This document shows, piece after piece, positions 11,117-26,888 of a DNA stretch of 43,279 nt. Numbering within the stretch: position 1 is the first letter of the stretch; every line of letters starts with the position of its first letter. The translations under genes and the position numbers were made by a program. Under the pieces are notes generated by a model. It was not told the DNA's origin, did not search any database, and worked only from the letters and a program-made list of their open reading frames with translations. The stretch comes from Thermoplasmatales archaeon SW_10_69_26. Its GTDB lineage: Archaea; Thermoplasmatota; SW-10-69-26. Where the stretch lies: positions 74,827 through 118,105 of the forward strand of contig PXUB01000019.1 in NCBI GenBank assembly GCA_003009755.1, given 5' to 3'.

Positions 11117-11121
11117 GTCAG

Positions 11122-11197
11122 CGCGCTCGCCGGGATTCGAACCCGGGATCCTCGGCTTAGAAGGCCGATGCCTTGGTCCGGACTAGGCTACGAGCGC
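11122..11197 (-). tRNA. tRNA-Arg(TCT), intronless, CCA not encoded
   Basis: GCGCTCG-TA-GCCT...AGGC-A-TCGGC-CT[TCT]AA-GCCGA-GGATC-CCGGG-TTCGAAT-CCCGG-CGAGCGC-G; TAATAT box about 25 nt upstream. Confidence 0.97.
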
Positions 11198-11538
11198 TCA
11201 CAGGTGGCACTGGGCTTCGTCATATTAGTGGCCGGTTCCTGTGGGAAAGCGAGGCAGGCGAGACGCGGACCGCGGTCCGGATCGCCGGAGTCCCTGTCCG
11301 TCAGGCGGACTCCGGCGAGAGCACGGATCTTCGGTCCGTGCCGACCAGGCGACGGGCGCTCGGGCGGGCACTGACCTTCGCTGTATCCGTGACCGGTGCC
11401 CTCGAGACGCCACCGCACCCCATTCTTTGACGATCGTTGCGGCTCCGGGCGTCTCCGTCCGCCATCGGCGGCCACGGTCCGCCCCGTCGGTCGTCCGAAA
11501 ACCTCACAACGATAAACGACGCGCGTGTTGGCGGGGGC

Positions 11539-12539
11539 GTGCCGGCGGACGAGCCGCCTGTGGATGCGGACGAGGGTCCGCCCGAGGAGCCGAAGCCGTT
11601 GGGCCGCCCGGTGCAGGTGAACCAGGCCGATCTCGTCCGTGGGATGATCTGCGTCGGCAAGAAGAAGGCGGTCACGCTGTTGCGCGAGCCCGAGCGCCGG
11701 ACGAGCGAGGTGCACGGGCTGGCGAGCCTGCTCGATGCCTACGTGGCGTTCACGAGCGAGGGGCCGCAGACGTCGGCCTTCTACGACGAGCTCGACAGCC
11801 GCGAGAAGGCCTCCTTCTCCTACCGGGTCGGCATGGGGCTGGCCCTGCTGGCGGCCCAGCACGCGCTCGAGATCCCGTGGCTGATGCACGCCGCCTCGCT
11901 GGAGGCCAGCGGCGGCCCGCATCGAGCCCGAGGACACCGCGCGCGGACCTGATCGGGCTCTCGCTCGACGGGCGCTGGCAGCTGGTGAGAGCGCACGCGC
12001 GCTCGACGGAGATCACGGCCTCGATCGTCGAGGACACCCGTCGCGAGGTGGCCGAGGTGGCCTCGATCAACGACCGGGAGCCGGTCGAGCGGCGGGCCTG
12101 CGTGGCCGGGCTGGGCGAGGCGCCGTTCCGCGTCAGCTTCGAGCCCGGACTCCCGCCGGAGGAGGCCGAGGACGAGGGCCCCGAGGTGCGCTTCCGGATC
12201 GACCCCTCGCAGTACATCGCCGAGTACTACGCCCAGTTTTCGTTCTTCACGAGCCTCGACACGCGCGAGCACACGTTCGCGAAAGACATCGGATGCGGGA
12301 ACCTGCCGCCGGCGGTGCTCTCGGATCTGGAGGGCACGCCATACGAGATCGGGCTGTTGAAACCGCTGCACGATGCCTTGCAACCGCCGGAGGAGCGGGT
12401 CGAGGAGACCCAGAGCCTGGACGAGGCGGTGCCGGGCAAGCGCGGCTGGGAGCCGGCCGATCCCCGCCGGGCCCGCCAGGCGGGCGTGAGCGTGGGCCGG
12501 GATGGCGTCGTCGTGACCGGGCCGGCGCCACCCGGGTAG
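11539..12539 (+). pseudogene. Frameshifted restriction-endonuclease-like (PD-(D/E)xK) protein with degenerate active site
   Basis: GTG 11539 frame gives EKASFSYRVGMGLA..LEIPWLMH and stops at 11952; the sequence continues in another frame as RADLIGLSLDGRWQLVRAHARS to 12539. GATAAA box at 11511. Confidence 0.6.
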
Positions 12540-12586
12540 CTGACCCGTAGGTTAACCAGGGCGAGCTCGCTGGCCGGGCGAGAACG

Positions 12587-14138: not shown

Positions 14139-14513
14139 TCACTCCCCCAGGGCCTCGGAGGCCTCGTCGACGGTGCCGATCACGGCGTTGCCGCCGGCGT
14201 GGAACCCCTCGACGTAGCCCAGGCACAATCCCCAGGCACCCAACAGCCCGGCCTCGTGGCCGTCGAGCGGGAGGCCGCCGGGTTCAGCGTCGACGAGCTC
14301 GAGACCTTGCTCACTCGCGACCCCCTCGAGCACGGCCTGCGGGCGTTCGTCGGGATCGGCCTCAGGGATCGCGGCGAGGACCGCCTCGAAGAACGCGGCT
14401 TGGCCGTCGAGGTAGGCCGAGCGCTCCTCGGTGGCCTCGACCGCGGCGAGCAGATCCTCGACGCCCTCGCCCAGCGCCTCCAGCACGTCGATCTCGCGGG
14501 CCGGCTGGCTCAT
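14139..14513 (-). CDS. Hypothetical acidic protein (124 aa), probably co-transcribed with tspO
   Basis: MSQPAREIDVLEALGEG...; host-like composition; stop 2 nt before the tspO start. Confidence 0.7.
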   Translation of the reverse strand: MSQPAREIDVLEALGEGVEDLLAAVEATEERSAYLDGQAAFFEAVLAAIPEADPDERPQAVLEGVASEQGLELVDAEPGGLPLDGHEAGLLGAWGLCLGYVEGFHAGGNAVIGTVDEASEALGE

Positions 14514-14592
14514 CGTGGACCCCAACGGGCCCCCGCTTGGAAACGGTTCGGTCCGCCCGACAGGCTTTCCCACGGCGAGCCGCTGCCCACGC

Positions 14593-15033
14593 GTGGCCGA
14601 GTGGGAGCTGTACCGGGCGATCGCCGACCACTGGCGCTCGCGCGGCTACCACGTGGTGACGTCGGTGACGGACCCCAGCGGCTCGCGCGTGGAGCTGGAC
14701 GTGGTCGCGTTCACGCCGGAGCTGGACGACGTGCGGATCACGGAGGCCAAGGTCGCGGCCTCGAAGGCGTTGGTCGACCAGTGCATCGATCGGTTGCGGT
14801 ACGCAGAGCGCGTGTACGCGGCCGTGCCGGCGACCGCGGCCGAGCGGTTGCGATCGCAAGCCGGCTCCGGGCCGGCGGACCGGCTGGGGATCTTGGCCGT
14901 GGCGGAGACCGGGGTCGAGGTGGTGCGGCAGGCCGAGCCGAGCGATCAGCGACGGGAGCCGGGCAAGGCGCACGTGATCGAGCGCCAGCTGCGGTCGGCG
15001 TTGGCGGAGGGCGAGGCCGAGGGGCCGGCGTGA
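14593..15033 (+). CDS. Small PD-(D/E)xK nuclease-fold protein (146 aa)
   Basis: E..LY...W...GY, ELDVVAF, ITEAK, LVDQ, RVYAAVP motif series; GTG start. Confidence 0.7.
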   Translation: MAEWELYRAIADHWRSRGYHVVTSVTDPSGSRVELDVVAFTPELDDVRITEAKVAASKALVDQCIDRLRYAERVYAAVPATAAERLRSQAGSGPADRLGILAVAETGVEVVRQAEPSDQRREPGKAHVIERQLRSALAEGEAEGPA

Positions 15034-15042
15034 GCGGCCGAC

Positions 15043-15237
15043 TCAGCCCTGCAGCGCGATCCGCACGTCGACGTCCTTGACGGCCCAGGTGCGGGCCTCG
15101 CTGGTGTTGGCGAACGTGACCTCGATGCGGCCCTCCTCGGCCAGCCAGTGGGCCAATTCGTCCTCGACGAGGGCGAAGGCCTCGTCGAAGCGGGGGCCCT
15201 GGGGGAGCTCGATCGTGCAGGGCACGGTCTCCTCCAT
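15043..15237 (-). pseudogene. Orphan second copy of the IleRS C-terminal domain (64 aa; may be expressed)
   Basis: LDMEETVPCTIEL..LAEEGRIEVTF..ARTW..VRIALQG aligns with the ileS end LEMEAVVDCTIGL..IEEEARVNLSF..ATEW..IRIVLHG. Confidence 0.7.
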
Positions 15238-15269
15238 GTCGAGCTTAGCTCCTAAGGAGGGGTAGCCCC

Positions 15270-18200
15270 TCAGTCGCCGTGAAGGACGATTCGAATGGTC
15301 TCCTCGTCTCCGCTCGCCTTGTTCGTGATCTCCCACTCGGTGGCGGAATCGGAGACCCCTTCGAACGAGAACGAGAGGTTCACCCTGGCCTCCTCTTCGA
15401 TCGCCTCTCGGAGGTAGGACTCGAGGTCCTCGAGCTCGCCCTCCCACGCCCTCGCGACGGTGGCTTGGGGATCTAGGCCGATGGTGCAGTCCACGACGGC
15501 CTCCATCTCCAGGTCCTGGCGCTTGCGCATCTCCTGGATCCTACGCAGAATCTCTTGGCTGAGACCTTCCTGCTCGTGCTCGGGCTCGAGGTGGGCGTCA
15601 ACGAACACGCTGCCCTCCTCGAAGTCAGCACCGAGGATGCCCTCGGGGACCTCGGTCGTGAACGAGACGGCCTCGGGCGGGATCTCGAAGCCGTCGATCT
15701 CGACGGTCTCACCAGCGTCGACGCGCTTCTTGAGCGCCTGGGCGTCGGCCTCGCTGATCGCCTTCTTCACGGCGGGGGCGTCCTCGCGGAACTCGGGACC
15801 GACGACCGAGCGCACGGGCTCGGCGACGAGGTGCAGCTCCTCCCAGGTGGGGCCGGCGTACTCGACGCGTTTGGCGTTGCACTGGTCGGCCAGCACGTCC
15901 TCCAGCGTCTCGCAGGCGCGCTCGACCGGCTTGGGTCCGGCCAAAACGACGCGCGGGACCGGCCATCGCAGGGACAGCTTCTCCTGCTCGCGAGCCTTGC
16001 TGGTCGCCTCGACGATGTCGCGCACGAGCTGCATGTCCTCCTCGAGCTCGGTGTCGCGCAGCGTCTCGTCGGGCTCGGGCCAGGCATCGGCGTGCACCGT
16101 GTCGGCCTCGGGGTACAGGTCGCGCCAGATCTGGTCGGCGACGTGCGGGGTGTAGGGCGCCAGCAGGCGGGCGACGTCGGCGAGCGCGACGCCGAGCACG
16201 TCGTACAGGCGGGTCTGAGCCTCGCCGTCCTCCCAGGCGCGGTCGCGGGTCAGCCGCACGTACCAGCGTGAGAGATCCTCGAGCACGAAGGTCGTGATCG
16301 TGCGCGCGGCCTCGTGGTATTCGTGGGCGTGCAGTTCGTCGCTGGCCTGCTCGACGGTGGCGGTCAACCGCGACAGGATCCAGCGGTCGAGGGCGTCCTC
16401 GGGCGGGTCGGCGTCCCAGCCCGGGCTCTGGGCCACGACGTCGTCCATGGCCATGTACTGGGTGGCGAACCGGTGCACGTTCCACAGGATGTTGAGCGTG
16501 CGTTGGGCCTCCTCGGCCGTCTCCTCGCCGTACTTGAGGTCGTTCCAGGGGGCGGAGGGCTCCAGCAGGGACAGCCGCGTCGGGTCGACGCCGTAGGCCT
16601 CGATGACGTCCTCGGGCGCGATGATGTTGCCCAGGGACTTGCTCATCGGGCGGCCCTCGTCGTCGTGGACGAACCCGTGCATGACGACCTCCTCGTAGGG
16701 CACCTGACCCATGGCGACGGTGCCGGCGGCGAGTTGGGAGTAAAACCAGCCGCGGGTCTGATCGAGGCCCTCGATGATGAGATCGCAGGGGAACCAATCG
16801 TCGAGCTGTTCGTCCGAGCGGGGGTATTCGAGGCTGGCCCAGGAGGCCACGGCCGAGTCGAACCAGACGTCGAGCACGTCGACGACGCGCTCCATCTCGC
16901 CCTCGCACCCGTCGGCGGTGCAGCCGAAGGTGACCTCGTCGACCCAGGGGCGGTGCAGGTCGGGCACGTCCTGGCCGGAGCGGCGTTCGAGCTCGGCGTG
17001 CGAGTCGACGACGTGTCGGTGCTCGCACGTGCCGCAGATCCAGATCGGGATCGGGATGCCCCAGTAGCGTTGCCGGCTGATGCACCAGTCGCGCACGTTC
17101 TCGACCCAGTCGCGTTGGCGGCCGGCGCCGGCCCACTCGGGGGTCCAGTCGACGCGGTCGATCTCGTCGAGCATCTCCTGCTTGCGATCGGTGACCGCGA
17201 GGAACCACTGCTCGGCCGTGCGGTACAGGATCGGCGTGTCGCAGCGCCAGCAGTGGCCGTAGCTGTGGTCGGTGAGGGCATCGGAGAACAGCAGGCCCTT
17301 CTCGGTCAGGCGCTCGATCACGGCGGTGTCGGCGTGGTCCTCGGGTGGCTCGCCGTCCTCGCCGGCTTCCTTGCGGACGCGAAGCCCGGCGAGCTCGCCG
17401 GCCTGGTCCGTGTAGAAGCCGTCGGCGCCGACGGGGCTGAACGGCGGGATGTCCTTCTCCTTGCCGATCTCGTAGTCCTCTTCCCCGTGCCCGGTCGCGG
17501 TGTGGACGAGCCCGGTGCGGTCGGCCTCGACGTGATCGCCGAGGACGAGGGTGTACTCGTTCTCGGTGCGTCGGTCCCGGTGATAGGGGACCTCGTCCGC
17601 GAACGGGTGCTCGTAGGCCAGGCCTTCGAGCTCGGTGCCCGGGAGGTGCTCCATCACGGTGACGTCGCGGGCCACCTGGTCGAGCACGTCGATGCAGGTC
17701 TCCTCGATGATCAGCTCCTCGGTGTCGCCGGCGTGGCTGGTGGCGAGCACGCGGGCGTAGGTGAGATCGGGGTGGGCCGCGACGGCGTTGTTCGCCGGCA
17801 GGGTCCACGGCGTGGTGGTCCAGACGAGCAGCGAGGCGTCGTCGTCGACCAGCGGCAGGCGGACGTAGATGCTGGGATCGACGCGGTCGTCGTACTCGAC
17901 CTCGGCCTGGGCGAGCGCCGTCTCGCAGCGGGGACACCAGGGCAGCCCGCCGCGGTTGTCGCGGTACAACAAATCCTGCTCGTCGGCGCGCTTGATCGCC
18001 CACCAGGCGCCTTCCATGTACGTGTCGTCGATGGTGCGGTAGGGGTCATCCCAGTCCAGCCAGACGCCGAGCTCGGCGAACTCGTCGTTCATCGTGTCGA
18101 GGAACCCGGTGGAGAACTCGCGGCACTTGTCGACGAAGTTGCCGACGCCGTAGTCCTCGATCTCGTTCTTGTCGGCGATGCCCAGCTCCTTCTCGACCTT

Positions 18201-18497
18201 GACCTCGATCGGGAGCCCGTGCATGTCGTAGCCGGGCTGGTCGCGGACGTCGTAGCCCTCCATCCGCCGGAACCGGACCAGCAGGTCCTTCATCACCTTG
18301 TTCCAGGCGGTACCCATGTGGATGTGGCCGCTCGTGTACGGCGGGCCGTCGACGAAGGAGAACGGGGGATCGTCGGCGTGGGCCTGGCGGACGGTCTCGA
18401 TCGCGTCCTCGGCCTCCCACCGCTCGCGGACCTGATCCTCGATGGCGTGGGGATCGTACTCGGAGCGGGCCGGCTGGACGGGTTCACGTTCGCCCAT
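15270..18497 (-). CDS. ileS: Isoleucyl-tRNA synthetase
   Basis: DGPPYTSGHIHMGTAWNK, WTTTPWTLP, HCWRCDTP, DWCISRQRYWG, EGLDQTRGWF, PMSKS; TTTAAA at 18528-18533 upstream. Confidence 0.98.
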   Translation of the reverse strand: MGEREPVQPARSEYDPHAIEDQVRERWEAEDAIETVRQAHADDPPFSFVDGPPYTSGHIHMGTAWNKVMKDLLVRFRRMEGYDVRDQPGYDMHGLPIEVKVEKELGIADKNEIEDYGVGNFVDKCREFSTGFLDTMNDEFAELGVWLDWDDPYRTIDDTYMEGAWWAIKRADEQDLLYRDNRGGLPWCPRCETALAQAEVEYDDRVDPSIYVRLPLVDDDASLLVWTTTPWTLPANNAVAAHPDLTYARVLATSHAGDTEELIIEETCIDVLDQVARDVTVMEHLPGTELEGLAYEHPFADEVPYHRDRRTENEYTLVLGDHVEADRTGLVHTATGHGEEDYEIGKEKDIPPFSPVGADGFYTDQAGELAGLRVRKEAGEDGEPPEDHADTAVIERLTEKGLLFSDALTDHSYGHCWRCDTPILYRTAEQWFLAVTDRKQEMLDEIDRVDWTPEWAGAGRQRDWVENVRDWCISRQRYWGIPIPIWICGTCEHRHVVDSHAELERRSGQDVPDLHRPWVDEVTFGCTADGCEGEMERVVDVLDVWFDSAVASWASLEYPRSDEQLDDWFPCDLIIEGLDQTRGWFYSQLAAGTVAMGQVPYEEVVMHGFVHDDEGRPMSKSLGNIIAPEDVIEAYGVDPTRLSLLEPSAPWNDLKYGEETAEEAQRTLNILWNVHRFATQYMAMDDVVAQSPGWDADPPEDALDRWILSRLTATVEQASDELHAHEYHEAARTITTFVLEDLSRWYVRLTRDRAWEDGEAQTRLYDVLGVALADVARLLAPYTPHVADQIWRDLYPEADTVHADAWPEPDETLRDTELEEDMQLVRDIVEATSKAREQEKLSLRWPVPRVVLAGPKPVERACETLEDVLADQCNAKRVEYAGPTWEELHLVAEPVRSVVGPEFREDAPAVKKAISEADAQALKKRVDAGETVEIDGFEIPPEAVSFTTEVPEGILGADFEEGSVFVDAHLEPEHEQEGLSQEILRRIQEMRKRQDLEMEAVVDCTIGLDPQATVARAWEGELEDLESYLREAIEEEARVNLSFSFEGVSDSATEWEITNKASGDEETIRIVLHGD

Positions 18498-23532: not shown

Positions 23533-23619
23533 GGGAAGAGAGCTCCGCGGACACCCTCTGCAGCGCTCGCATCCTCCGGGGTGGGAAACCTACTTGACGG
23601 CCATCGACCTTGGCGGCTT

Positions 23620-24582
23620 GTGGCCCTCGAAGAGGTCTGGCTCGAGAAGTACCGACCCGACACGCTTGACGAGGTGCTGGGACAAGACCACGTGATCGAC
23701 CGGCTGCAAGGCTACGTCGACGCCGGTCAGCTCCCGCACCTGCTGTTCGCGGGCCCAGCCGGTGTAGGCAAGACCACGTGCGCGATCGCGCTCGCCAAGC
23801 AGCTGTTCGGTGACGACTGGGAGAACAACTTCCAGGAGCTCAACGCCAGCGACGAGCGCGGCATCAACACCGTCCGCACGAAGATCAAGGACTTCGCCCG
23901 CACCGCGCCGCTGGGCGAGGCCGACTTCAAAGTCATCTTCCTCGACGAGGCCGACAACCTGACCTCGGACGCGCAGGCCGCGCTGCGCCGCACGATGGAG
24001 CAGTACGCCCAGACGTGCCGGTTCATCCTGTCCTGCAACTACTCCTCGCGCATCATCGACCCGATCCAGAGCCGCTGCACCATCTTCCGCTTCCGCCCGA
24101 TCCCCGAGGAGGGGATCCGATCGATGGTCGAACGGGTCGCCAAGCGAGAGGGCCTCTCGATCGACGAGGAGGCGATGGAGGCCGTCGAGTACATCGCCGA
24201 CGGCGACATGCGCGGCGCCGTCAACACGGTCCAGATGGCAGCCAGCGTCTCCACGGATATCGACAGCGACGTGATCTACGAGGCTGCCACGGCCGCTCGC
24301 CCGGAGGAGGTCGAGGACATGGTCGGGCTCGCGCTCGAGGCCGAGTACCTCGACGCCCGCGACAAGCTCGACACGCTGCTCGTCGACCAGGGCCTCTCGG
24401 GCGAGGACGTCGTCAAGCAGGTCCACAAGACGCTCGTCGACGCCCCCGTCGACGACGAGCTCAAGGTGCGGCTGATCGACCGGTTGGGCGACACCGAGTA
24501 CCGGCTCGTCATGGGCGCCAACGAGCGCGTCCAGCTGGAAGCGATGCTGGCCCACTTCGGCATCGCCGACGACGAGGCCTGA
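23620..24582 (+). CDS. rfcS: Replication factor C small subunit (no intein)
   Basis: WLEKYRP, GPAGVGKTT, ELNASDERG, LDEAD, AQAALRRTME, IQSRC. Confidence 0.97.
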   Translation: MALEEVWLEKYRPDTLDEVLGQDHVIDRLQGYVDAGQLPHLLFAGPAGVGKTTCAIALAKQLFGDDWENNFQELNASDERGINTVRTKIKDFARTAPLGEADFKVIFLDEADNLTSDAQAALRRTMEQYAQTCRFILSCNYSSRIIDPIQSRCTIFRFRPIPEEGIRSMVERVAKREGLSIDEEAMEAVEYIADGDMRGAVNTVQMAASVSTDIDSDVIYEAATAARPEEVEDMVGLALEAEYLDARDKLDTLLVDQGLSGEDVVKQVHKTLVDAPVDDELKVRLIDRLGDTEYRLVMGANERVQLEAMLAHFGIADDEA

Positions 24583-25418: not shown

Positions 25419-25702
25419 AGGCCGCCGCGTTCCCGTATCAAGGGGTGAGCCTACGTCTAGCCTCGGCGGCCTGCGGCGATCGACGCACCGATGGTCGAGT
25501 ACGGGAACGGGACCGCGCTGAGCCATCGTTTCGTTCGCTCTCGTGACGACCGCGCAATCCTCGCCGGTCGTCACTCCAAGCGTCGAGCCCGCACGGTTGA
25601 CACCGGGCTAGCGACGCTCGAGATTCGAACGAGCCGCTCCACGGTTGGGCCGGCTCGTTCTCTTGCGTGACGACCGCGTGATGTATGTCGGTCGTCACGC
25701 AA
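25419..25702 (-). ncRNA. Multi-hairpin structured element downstream of cdc6
   Basis: Stems 25543-25574, 25579-25618, 25627-25660, 25663-25702 and crossing pairs 25419-27/25464-72 and 25428-37/25500-09. Confidence 0.45.
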
Positions 25703-26888
25703 TCTCGCCGGCTTCGAGGCGCTCGCCGAGGTGCTCCTCGATCTGGTGGGCCGGGGCATCGGGCAGGCTCATCAGCGTCGTCGTGCCGACGACGCCCTCG
25801 CCGGAGCGCTTGGCCTCGATCAGGCCCAGCGCGTCGAGATCCTGGATGTAGGTCCAGAACTGCGTGTGGCCGCGCGGCTCGGCGTCGAACTCCTCGCAGG
25901 CGGCCTCGTAGGCGGACTTGACGTCGCCGGTCTTGGCGTAGGCGCCGCCGCGGTCGAGCACGCGAGCCACGCCCAGCAGCGTGAGGGCGTGTTGCTCGTC
26001 GAGCTCCTCCAGGCGTTCGTCGAGGATGACAGGGTGGATGTGGGCCTTGGCGGCGCGCACGTGCTCGGGAACGACCTGGTCCTCGCTGCGCTCGTCGGCG
26101 GCTTGCCCGGCCTCGTGCAGCAGCTCGATCGCGAACCGGGCGTCACCGTCCTCGCTGGCCAGGTCGGCCACCAGATCCACGACGCCGTCCTGCACCGTGT
26201 TGGGGTGGAAGGCCAGGTCGACACGTTGCTCGGCGATCGAGCCCAGCTCCTCGGCCCCGTAGGCGTCCAGCTGCAGCGTGTTCGTCTGCTTGAACGTGGA
26301 CTTGGTGCCCTCGTCCATCAGCAGACGCACGTTCTCCTGGCTGACGAGGATCACCGAGACGCCGAACTCGCCGCCGCCGGTCTCCTCGTTGAACCGCGTG
26401 AGGTGATAGACGAGGTCCGCATCGTCGCGCTTGATCAACACGTCGACCTCGTCGAGCACGACGATCAGGTGCGAGCGGTTGCGCTTGAGCTGCTTGGCGA
26501 GCTGCTCGAGCATCTCGGTCGTCGAGAACCCGCGATCGGGGAAGCCCGGATCGAACTCGTTGACGATCTGCAGCAGCGCCGAGGAGGTCGTCGACCGGCG
26601 CCGACAGTTGACGTGCACCGTCTCGAGGTTGATCTCTCGGCTGTCGGCCGCGCGCTCGAACTCGCGACAGAAGCGCTTGCTGAGCGCCGTCTTGCCGGAC
26701 CCGACGGGCCCACGGACGAGCATCGACTGCTGGGTGCCCTCCTCGAACACCGACCGCATCTGGCGGGTCATCTCCCGCATCTCGTCCTCGCGGTGCGGGA
26801 GCTCGTCGGGGACGTAATCGAACCCCAGCTTGCTCTCGTCCTTGAACACGGACGGGCCACGGAGGGTCTCCTCGATCACGTCCCGCAT
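25695..26888 (-). CDS. cdc6: Orc1/Cdc6 replication initiator
   Basis: YVPDELPHRE, GPVGSGKT, VHVNCR, VLDEVD, GDARFAIELL, C-terminal winged helix. Confidence 0.96.
   Translation of the reverse strand: MRDVIEETLRGPSVFKDESKLGFDYVPDELPHREDEMREMTRQMRSVFEEGTQQSMLVRGPVGSGKTALSKRFCREFERAADSREINLETVHVNCRRRSTTSSALLQIVNEFDPGFPDRGFSTTEMLEQLAKQLKRNRSHLIVVLDEVDVLIKRDDADLVYHLTRFNEETGGGEFGVSVILVSQENVRLLMDEGTKSTFKQTNTLQLDAYGAEELGSIAEQRVDLAFHPNTVQDGVVDLVADLASEDGDARFAIELLHEAGQAADERSEDQVVPEHVRAAKAHIHPVILDERLEELDEQHALTLLGVARVLDRGGAYAKTGDVKSAYEAACEEFDAEPRGHTQFWTYIQDLDALGLIEAKRSGEGVVGTTTLMSLPDAPAHQIEEHLGERLEAGEIA

Follow-up and report, generated by a model that had tools for sequence, protein, structure and literature searches.

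Apparent displacement of the native ARD3 body of an isoleucyl-tRNA synthetase in a halophilic archaeon

Introduction

How a housekeeping gene comes to be followed by what looks like a second version of its own 3' end is the question raised by ileS, the isoleucyl-tRNA synthetase (IleRS) gene found in a stretch of 43,279 nucleotides (nt) from Thermoplasmatales archaeon SW_10_69_26 (contig PXUB01000019.1; the whole stretch is referred to as the window). The window has a G+C content of 70.4%. The 10 sequencing runs listed as containing its DNA include none of RNA, and the DNA is present in halite metagenomes. Because it is found there, and because the records of its relatives are metagenome-assembled genomes of Thermoplasmata or Thermoplasmatales archaea, the source organism is a halophilic member of the Thermoplasmatota. 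A gap of 32 nt separates the ileS stop codon from an open reading frame (ORF) of 64 codons, here called the orphan, and an AGGAG motif ends 11 nt before the ATG of the latter. These features, including the coordinates of both ORFs, had been described in a first-pass annotation made from the letters of the window and were reproduced from the ORF list and the sequence. The same annotation had proposed that ileS carries a foreign replacement 3' end, with the original left just downstream, as the scar of an integrating element whose body was later deleted. Arrangements of this sort are known for integrating prophages, e14 in icd being one: the gene is kept intact by a new 3' end that arrives with the element, and the old end persists as a fragment. 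The reading favoured here keeps the replacement and dispenses with the element: recombination would have displaced the C-terminal ARD3 body of this essential synthetase.

Results

Two homologous tails at one locus

The ileS product matches the Pfam families tRNA-synt_1 (E 1e-124), Anticodon_1 and DUF5915; the orphan matches no Pfam family. The first-pass annotation had aligned the orphan with the last ~75 amino acids of the adjacent IleRS. As a direct comparison this did not hold up, since BLASTP of the attached tail against the orphan gave no significant match (E 0.054 off register, E 1.3 in register). The kinship itself was nevertheless recovered by indirect routes. A search of 41 genomes with the orphan yielded matches in three, one being the genome of the window itself (G000) and the other two being G001 (E 2.4e-12) and G004 (E 4.7e-12), which make up one genus of G000's family. 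These latter matches, at 47-50% identity, take up the extreme C-terminus of a long reading frame for IleRS, from …DLEMEETV(P/S)C… onwards. Met1 of the orphan stands in register with Met998 of the IleRS in the window. When 23 IleRS tails, none of them from the family, were combined into a profile, this detected the attached tail (E 6e-6), the orphan (E 6e-4) and a sister orphan, P0004 (E 1e-7; all at Z=1). Finally, AlphaFold models gave the same strand-helix-strand-strand-strand order for the orphan and the terminal 76 residues of IleRS. Confidence is moderate for the orphan (predicted local distance difference test, pLDDT, 70.7) and stands at 89.7 for a model of the C-terminal 309 amino acids of IleRS, in which the blocks of the attached tail range from 58 to 89. 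In Foldseek, the 309-residue model matched the structures of P. megaterium IleRS2 and yeast IleRS (E 2e-19 to 4e-16), over its full length in the case of 8c8w/8c8v (E 2e-19, TMq 0.73). The orphan model gave nothing at E<1e-3; its top TM-scores were to IleRS chains (8c8u, 0.66; 8wnd_A, 0.62; probability 0.9). The two tails are thus homologous, each of them being an ARD3 (anticodon-reading domain) body. Other stand-alone homologues of the orphan occur among metagenome proteins (P0003/P0010, P0009 and P0004).

A preprint (bioRxiv 10.64898/2026.02.03.703510) describes ARD3, the last domain of IleRS, as reading anticodon base G34 via residues Q961, R964, K965 and L969 of PmIleRS2. In a HMMER alignment to 8c8u, these residues correspond to Q988, R991, K992 and L996 of the present IleRS, all within the helix RRIQEMRKRQDL, which lies just 5' of the point of divergence. 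The orphan begins two residues after the counterpart of L996 and contains none of the four pocket residues. From this alignment, the pocket helix appears to have been kept and the domain body behind it exchanged.

The orphan-type tail is joined to ileS in relatives

In relatives, ileS still ends, in frame, in a tail of the orphan type. The IleRS ends of G001 and G004 start at the same MEETVPCTI as the orphan, whose first 27 nt are almost identical to the G001 tail. Two metagenome contigs, from two different metagenome studies, show the unsplit gene. The first (X7 record 23) is 88% alike over 15139-15245 and continues upstream into codons read as RVQQMRKEAELD. The second (X10 record 2) aligns with 15110-15225 and with 15586-15687, the two segments being separated by 91 letters. 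As this is the exact count expected if Met1 of the orphan stands at Met998, the gene on this contig is taken to be unsplit. Likeness between these relatives and the orphan amounts to 85-88%. In G001-G004 and in G010, the region 3' of ileS was found to contain no orphan. The first-pass proposal of a replacement end with the original just downstream is thereby supported.

Comparison with the loose end of the X7 contig also indicates where native sequence resumes behind ileS. Native homology ends ~13-20 nt 5' of the orphan ATG, at ~15250-15257, and the 19 nt that follow the ileS stop codon have no counterpart in this contig. The same spacer bears no likeness to the coding sequence of relatives, as judged from a DNA alignment with the tails of G001, G004 and G003 and, for the X7 loose end, by eye. 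The 13 nt that lie between the spacer and the orphan ATG match in-frame …A-E-L-D codons of X7 record 23 at 11/13 nt (by eye) and G001 at 7/12 nt, the boundary between spacer and remnant (15250/15251) being uncertain by ~7 nt.

Origin of the attached tail

DNA identity is 49% between the attached tail and the orphan and 63% between the orphan and the G001 tail. In a tree of tails, from which G002 was excluded because its tail is mostly N, all tails of the family form one clade (100/99). The orphans make up a clade of their own (94/98) near G001 and G004, their exact place among the family tails being unsettled. The attached tails also fall within the family clade, as weakly supported neighbours of G003 (80/70), and their branch has a length of 2.22. 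The attached tail, G003 and G002 share the ending …W-x-I-T-(N/S)-…-E-E-…-I-(R/W)-I. The donor was probably a halophilic member of the Thermoplasmatota belonging to the same family.

The attached tail is functional and conserved. It recurs in four IleRS proteins from metagenomes, with 70-75 of 76 amino acids identical, and the five IleRS differ from each other in this segment at 1-6 of the 76 positions. The IleRS of G000 and that of P0001 are 86.3% identical overall and show no difference in alignment columns 963-1050. In a third protein, P0005, the first 100 residues are those of G000, from which P0001 departs at 8 positions in this segment, and the remainder follows P0001. Among these lineages ileS is therefore a recombination mosaic. 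The new end of the gene may have spread among them by ordinary homologous recombination.

It is implausible that the tail of an essential enzyme should have diverged to 49% while an idle copy stayed 85-88% like its unsplit relatives; the attached tail therefore appears to have been imported from elsewhere. The same consideration bears on a purely local origin, namely an in-place tandem duplication of the last ~80 codons followed by fast divergence of the attached copy. Two homologous units do stand head to tail, and both tails fall inside the family clade, as such a duplication would have it; however, the copy under constraint would then be the one that changed. Moreover, the 19 nt after the ileS stop codon and the 19 nt after that of the orphan match at 6/19 positions (by eye), and no duplicate was found in G001-G005. 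We regard this origin as very improbable.

The attached tail also gave a second match in G000, on contig C2 (E 0.006), which was set aside because its frame looked non-coding. A scan of metagenome contigs returned one locus, 29% identical, that was of no use.

Codon usage at the end of ileS

The first-pass annotation had also pointed to an excess of host-rare codons in the last part of ileS as opposed to the orphan. In ileS, 15 of the last 125 codons have a frequency below 0.10, as against 3.1% of the first 999; the orphan has one such codon in 64. Codons ending in A or T are likewise denser in the last 240 codons of the gene (26/240, as against 30/569; odds ratio 2.18, p 0.006); the same test applied to relatives gave odds ratios of 1.65-1.76 in 2 of 17 (p 0.03 and 0.051). 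To this extent the contrast stands, tempered by the overall codon score of the attached tail, which places it no further down than among the bottom 8% of 5974 genome windows (that of the orphan beats 95% of them). It does not extend to G+C at third codon positions (GC3), for which a sliding analysis had been suggested: the drop at the attached tail (-0.045) is ordinary, falling inside the range of the native tails of 21 relatives (-0.163 to +0.046). The rare codons start 5' of the point at which the proteins diverge, which hints, but does no more than hint, that the incoming DNA extended further to the left.

How the tails may have been exchanged

With slightly more confidence than doubt, we consider that a divergent homologue of the ileS 3' end, from another lineage, displaced the native one in the course of one recombination event, and that the orphan is likely a relic of it. 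A linear ileS fragment would have recombined with the resident gene in a single event. At the upstream end, a homologous crossover would have occurred in the highly conserved region around RRIQEMRK, whose codons are near-identical in G002-G004, or further 5'. At the downstream end, an illegitimate joint would have been made ~13-20 nt before the Met998 codon of the resident gene. The enzyme would as a result end in the incoming ARD3 body, with its own stop codon, and the resident body of 64 codons would have been pushed 32 nt downstream.

An integrative element of the e14/icd type, as put forward in the first-pass annotation, would have carried the replacement ileS end in its attachment site, inserted itself into ileS and later lost its body by a precise deletion, leaving the two ends 32 nt apart. 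A replacement end followed by the original end is the layout that such elements leave behind, and genes 3' of ileS differ among G000, G001 and G004, as expected of a rearrangement-prone spot. An imperfect direct repeat, CT[G/C]GA[G/C]ATGGAGG (11/13 identical, with 7 identical nt), also flanks the 269-nt unit; this repeat is, however, not convincing as an attachment core, since it may be accounted for by the homology of the tails, both of which encode L-(E/D)-M-E. A repeat search found no repeat flanking both junctions among the families listed. No integrase or transposase was detected among 20 of the 29 candidate ORFs of the window (those scanned span 924-31040; 9 ORFs beyond 31131 were left out), where the recognizable neighbours include GatD, an Elp3-like protein, a THUMP-SPOUT methylase, TspO, a rhomboid protein, RFC and Cdc6. 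Neither tail was found to have a second copy in the genome, and viral contigs yielded no relative of the attached tail. To our knowledge, the replacement ends of integrating elements are near-identical to their targets, unlike the present tails with their 49% DNA identity. The single recombination event outlined above yields the same structure without a second, near-exact deletion, and this disfavours an element further. With 20 of the 29 ORFs scanned, the proposal of an element scar finds no support and is regarded here as decidedly unlikely.

Fate of the orphan

The orphan is probably a relic, untranslated or useless and drifting neutrally, as suggested by the absence of the G34-reading residues and by the neutral look of its changes. 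Between lineages, orphans show 7-14 differences in 60-64 amino acids. Among their tryptophans, one that is kept elsewhere is replaced by L28, and P0004 carries W31R. In run X2, 6 of the 9 differences listed for 14700-15261 fall within the 195 nt of the orphan; four of these change a residue and two are at third positions. With 147 nonsynonymous and 45 synonymous sites, the ratio of nonsynonymous to synonymous change (dN/dS) is ~0.8-1.2 if the X2 strain is of the P0003 type, a provisional value that uses the listed differences from short contigs and takes the 5 unlisted ones of record 8 to be the other 4 of the P0003 type and one more.

The first-pass annotation had offered, as an alternative, that the orphan is a free IleRS C-domain protein. 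More broadly, an orphan of the same origin could be kept by selection, either as a free ARD3-like protein of 64 amino acids or as a spare cassette that can be re-attached. All 4 known variants keep the ORF intact, including one that lacks a single codon in frame, and the orphan is modelled as a compact domain with a host-like codon score (see above). Its translation is possible, given that AGGAG precedes the ATG in a genome where such Shine-Dalgarno-like motifs are enriched before starts (AGGAG at 4.0% versus 0.7%; 569 genes). Deletion of the 269 nt between the two ATGs would, in addition, give back an in-frame gene. Against these features must be set the absence of Q988, R991, K992 and L996, the neutral appearance of the changes and the loss of conserved tryptophans in two lineages. 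The intactness of the known variants is itself to be read with the search in mind, which sees called ORFs only, so that broken copies would escape it; the contigs that carry P0001, P0005 and P0007 (5.8-6.7 kb) gave no orphan protein. Maintenance by selection thus seems unlikely, and a free domain, although it would be equipped with an intact ORF and AGGAG, less likely than a relic.

A bolder version of the same idea is a two-cassette system, in which the orphan, intact and in register, is re-attached by the 269-nt deletion between short repeats, or acts as a free module on IleRS or tRNA-Ile. We hold this to be improbable. If true, it would mean that a halite population maintains two interchangeable versions of an anticodon domain, in the manner of orphan toxin tips that can be re-expressed. 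Among longer proteins, a word-indexed search, which is weak evidence, gave no match to the orphan, and a genome-contig scan with a single protein gave none either.

Neighbouring genes and further observations

Table 1. Features at and around the ileS locus (positions within the window)
Feature	Position	Strand	Remarks
tRNA-Arg(TCT) gene	11121-11197	minus	
Interval of ~1.4 kb next to the tRNA gene	11198-12586		one gene-like ORF
Gene-like ORF in this interval	11437-11952		no Pfam family
Convergent neighbour ORF	14431-15033	plus	no Pfam family; its stop is 9 nt from the orphan stop
Orphan ORF, putative displaced native ARD3 body	15043-15237	minus	ATG, 64 codons + TGA, 195 nt
Putative untranslated remnant of native ileS codons (…A-K-L-D)	15238-15250	minus	directly 5' of the orphan ATG
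Spacer of ~19 nt after the ileS stop	15251-15269	minus	read as 3' flank brought by the new tail
ileS, archaeal/type-2 isoleucyl-tRNA synthetase	15270-18497	minus	1075 amino acids + stop; TGA at 15270-15272
Attached (putatively incoming) tail, codons 1000-1075 + TGA	15270-15500	minus	beta-alpha-beta-beta-beta body of ARD3
Last 240 codons of ileS	15270-15995	minus	denser in A/T-ending and rare codons; the incoming DNA may span all of it
Codons 985-996, helix RRIQEMRKRQDL	15510-15545	minus	aligns with the G34-reading pocket of PmIleRS2 (HMMER, against 8c8u)
RFC small subunit gene	23581-24582	plus	
Cdc6/Orc1 gene	25695-26888	minus	

Synteny within the family breaks down 3' of ileS, where the next gene differs from one genome to another: it is the convergent ORF of Table 1 in G000, a membrane-like ORF on the same strand in G001 (L002) and a convergent ORF in G004 (L003). 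The last of these may resemble the bifunctional-nuclease family, and the convergent ORF of G000 contains a stretch, …ELDVVAF…TEAK…, which may resemble a PD-(D/E)xK nuclease motif.

Some features of ileS itself in relatives and metagenomes may be recorded here. In seven relatives of the same class (G008, G006, G014, G009, G019, G016 and G013; L017, L023, L024, L026, L027, L028 and L032), IleRS extends past ARD3 by 30-100 amino acids that are basic and rich in lysine, alanine and proline (…AKKAAKK…RR); the family of G000 is without this extension. Just before the ileS stop codon of G001 (contig C51; L002/L012/L040), one ~55-nt sequence stands both before and after a run of N; this looks like a scaffolding gap with overlapping ends that makes the ORF appear longer. 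The X2 contigs end at 15261 and 15307, and one X10 contig shows a joint of 15370 to 15585; no interpretation is given for either.

Elsewhere in the window, the tRNA-Arg(TCT) gene is followed by the ~1.4 kb with one ORF of gene-like composition; tRNA genes are common integration targets. The genes for the RFC small subunit and Cdc6/Orc1 lie close together, and a replication origin may for this reason be located nearby.

Discussion

Displacement of the ARD3 body by recombination with an incoming ileS end is, we infer, the best reading of this locus. Several points weigh against it. The designation of one tail as native rests on the tails of relatives and on two short metagenome contigs (162 and 342 nt, at a depth of 2.6-3.6), and the tree of the IleRS body leaves the sister genus of G000 unsettled. 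No donor of the attached tail was found: 60 related genomes gave weak matches to IleRS tails only; 1.84 billion representative proteins gave two matches, both in long, multi-stretch proteins; and pattern matches in viral contigs (14) and in genome contigs (232) included none that was confirmed. The compositional signal is weak. Microhomology at the downstream joint is possible in the form of AGGA..GC at 15250-15257, as deduced from a relative that is 88% alike. To these may be added the assumptions behind the dN/dS value, the intact ORF of the orphan in every known variant and its possible translation (see above).

If the reading is correct, the locus holds the before and after versions of an ARD3 body side by side, in a habitat shared with unsplit relatives; what a natural ARD3 swap does to function would therefore be directly measurable. 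Short orphan ORFs 3' of core genes may mark similar events elsewhere. IleRS C-terminal domains have been proposed as a hotspot of remodelling, an earlier case that rests on deep trees. ARD3 is the domain concerned both in that proposal, as far as it is set out in the source cited above for the G34 pocket, and here. There, an ancient exchange for an unrelated fold is deduced from trees; here, the swap is like for like and so recent that the locus has not yet lost the displaced piece. A limited literature search brought up no displaced IleRS end and no mosaic ileS, which is not to claim that none is in print.

With e14 in icd, the locus shares a gene that its new 3' end keeps whole, the old end persisting as a fragment. 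It differs in that no element, integrase or convincing attachment site was found at ileS, in that the two ends lie 32 nt apart and in that the replacement end is highly divergent.

A mechanistic parallel is homology-facilitated illegitimate recombination, which is described in PMC3240628, invoked in PMC5361080 and demonstrated experimentally in bacteria. In this process, homology anchors one end of the incoming linear DNA but plays no part in the joining of the other, so that replacement and addition are achieved in one step, as suggested for ileS. At ileS the process is deduced from its product alone, the left crossover not being located and microhomology being uncertain.

With respect to the outcome, the nearest known systems are the rhs, cdiA and type VI secretion system (T6SS) effector loci, at which C-terminal displacement has been described (Jackson et al. 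2009, PMC2935791; Kirchberger et al. 2017, PMC5361080). At ileS, the circular single-crossover model from the first of these sources fits less well, since the core scrap of ~13-20 nt is too short; the combination of a homologous crossover and an illegitimate joint is the model proposed for displaced T6SS effectors and rhs tips (PMC5361080, PMC2935791). As portrayed in these accounts, the toxin loci differ from ileS in other ways: ileS encodes an essential archaeal housekeeping synthetase and not a polymorphic toxin, its two tips are homologous and alike in fold, and there is one displaced tip, with neither a string of tips nor an immunity gene. At the toxin loci, and on our reading at ileS too, the conserved body stays, an exogenous 3' tip attaches to it, and the old tip is shunted just downstream together with a scrap of the core, the displaced tip having no start of its own making. 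In both, too, the difference between tips would stem from import and not from rapid divergence, although at ileS no donor was found. If the reading is correct, tip displacement, familiar from polymorphic toxin loci, extends to an essential translation gene of an archaeon.

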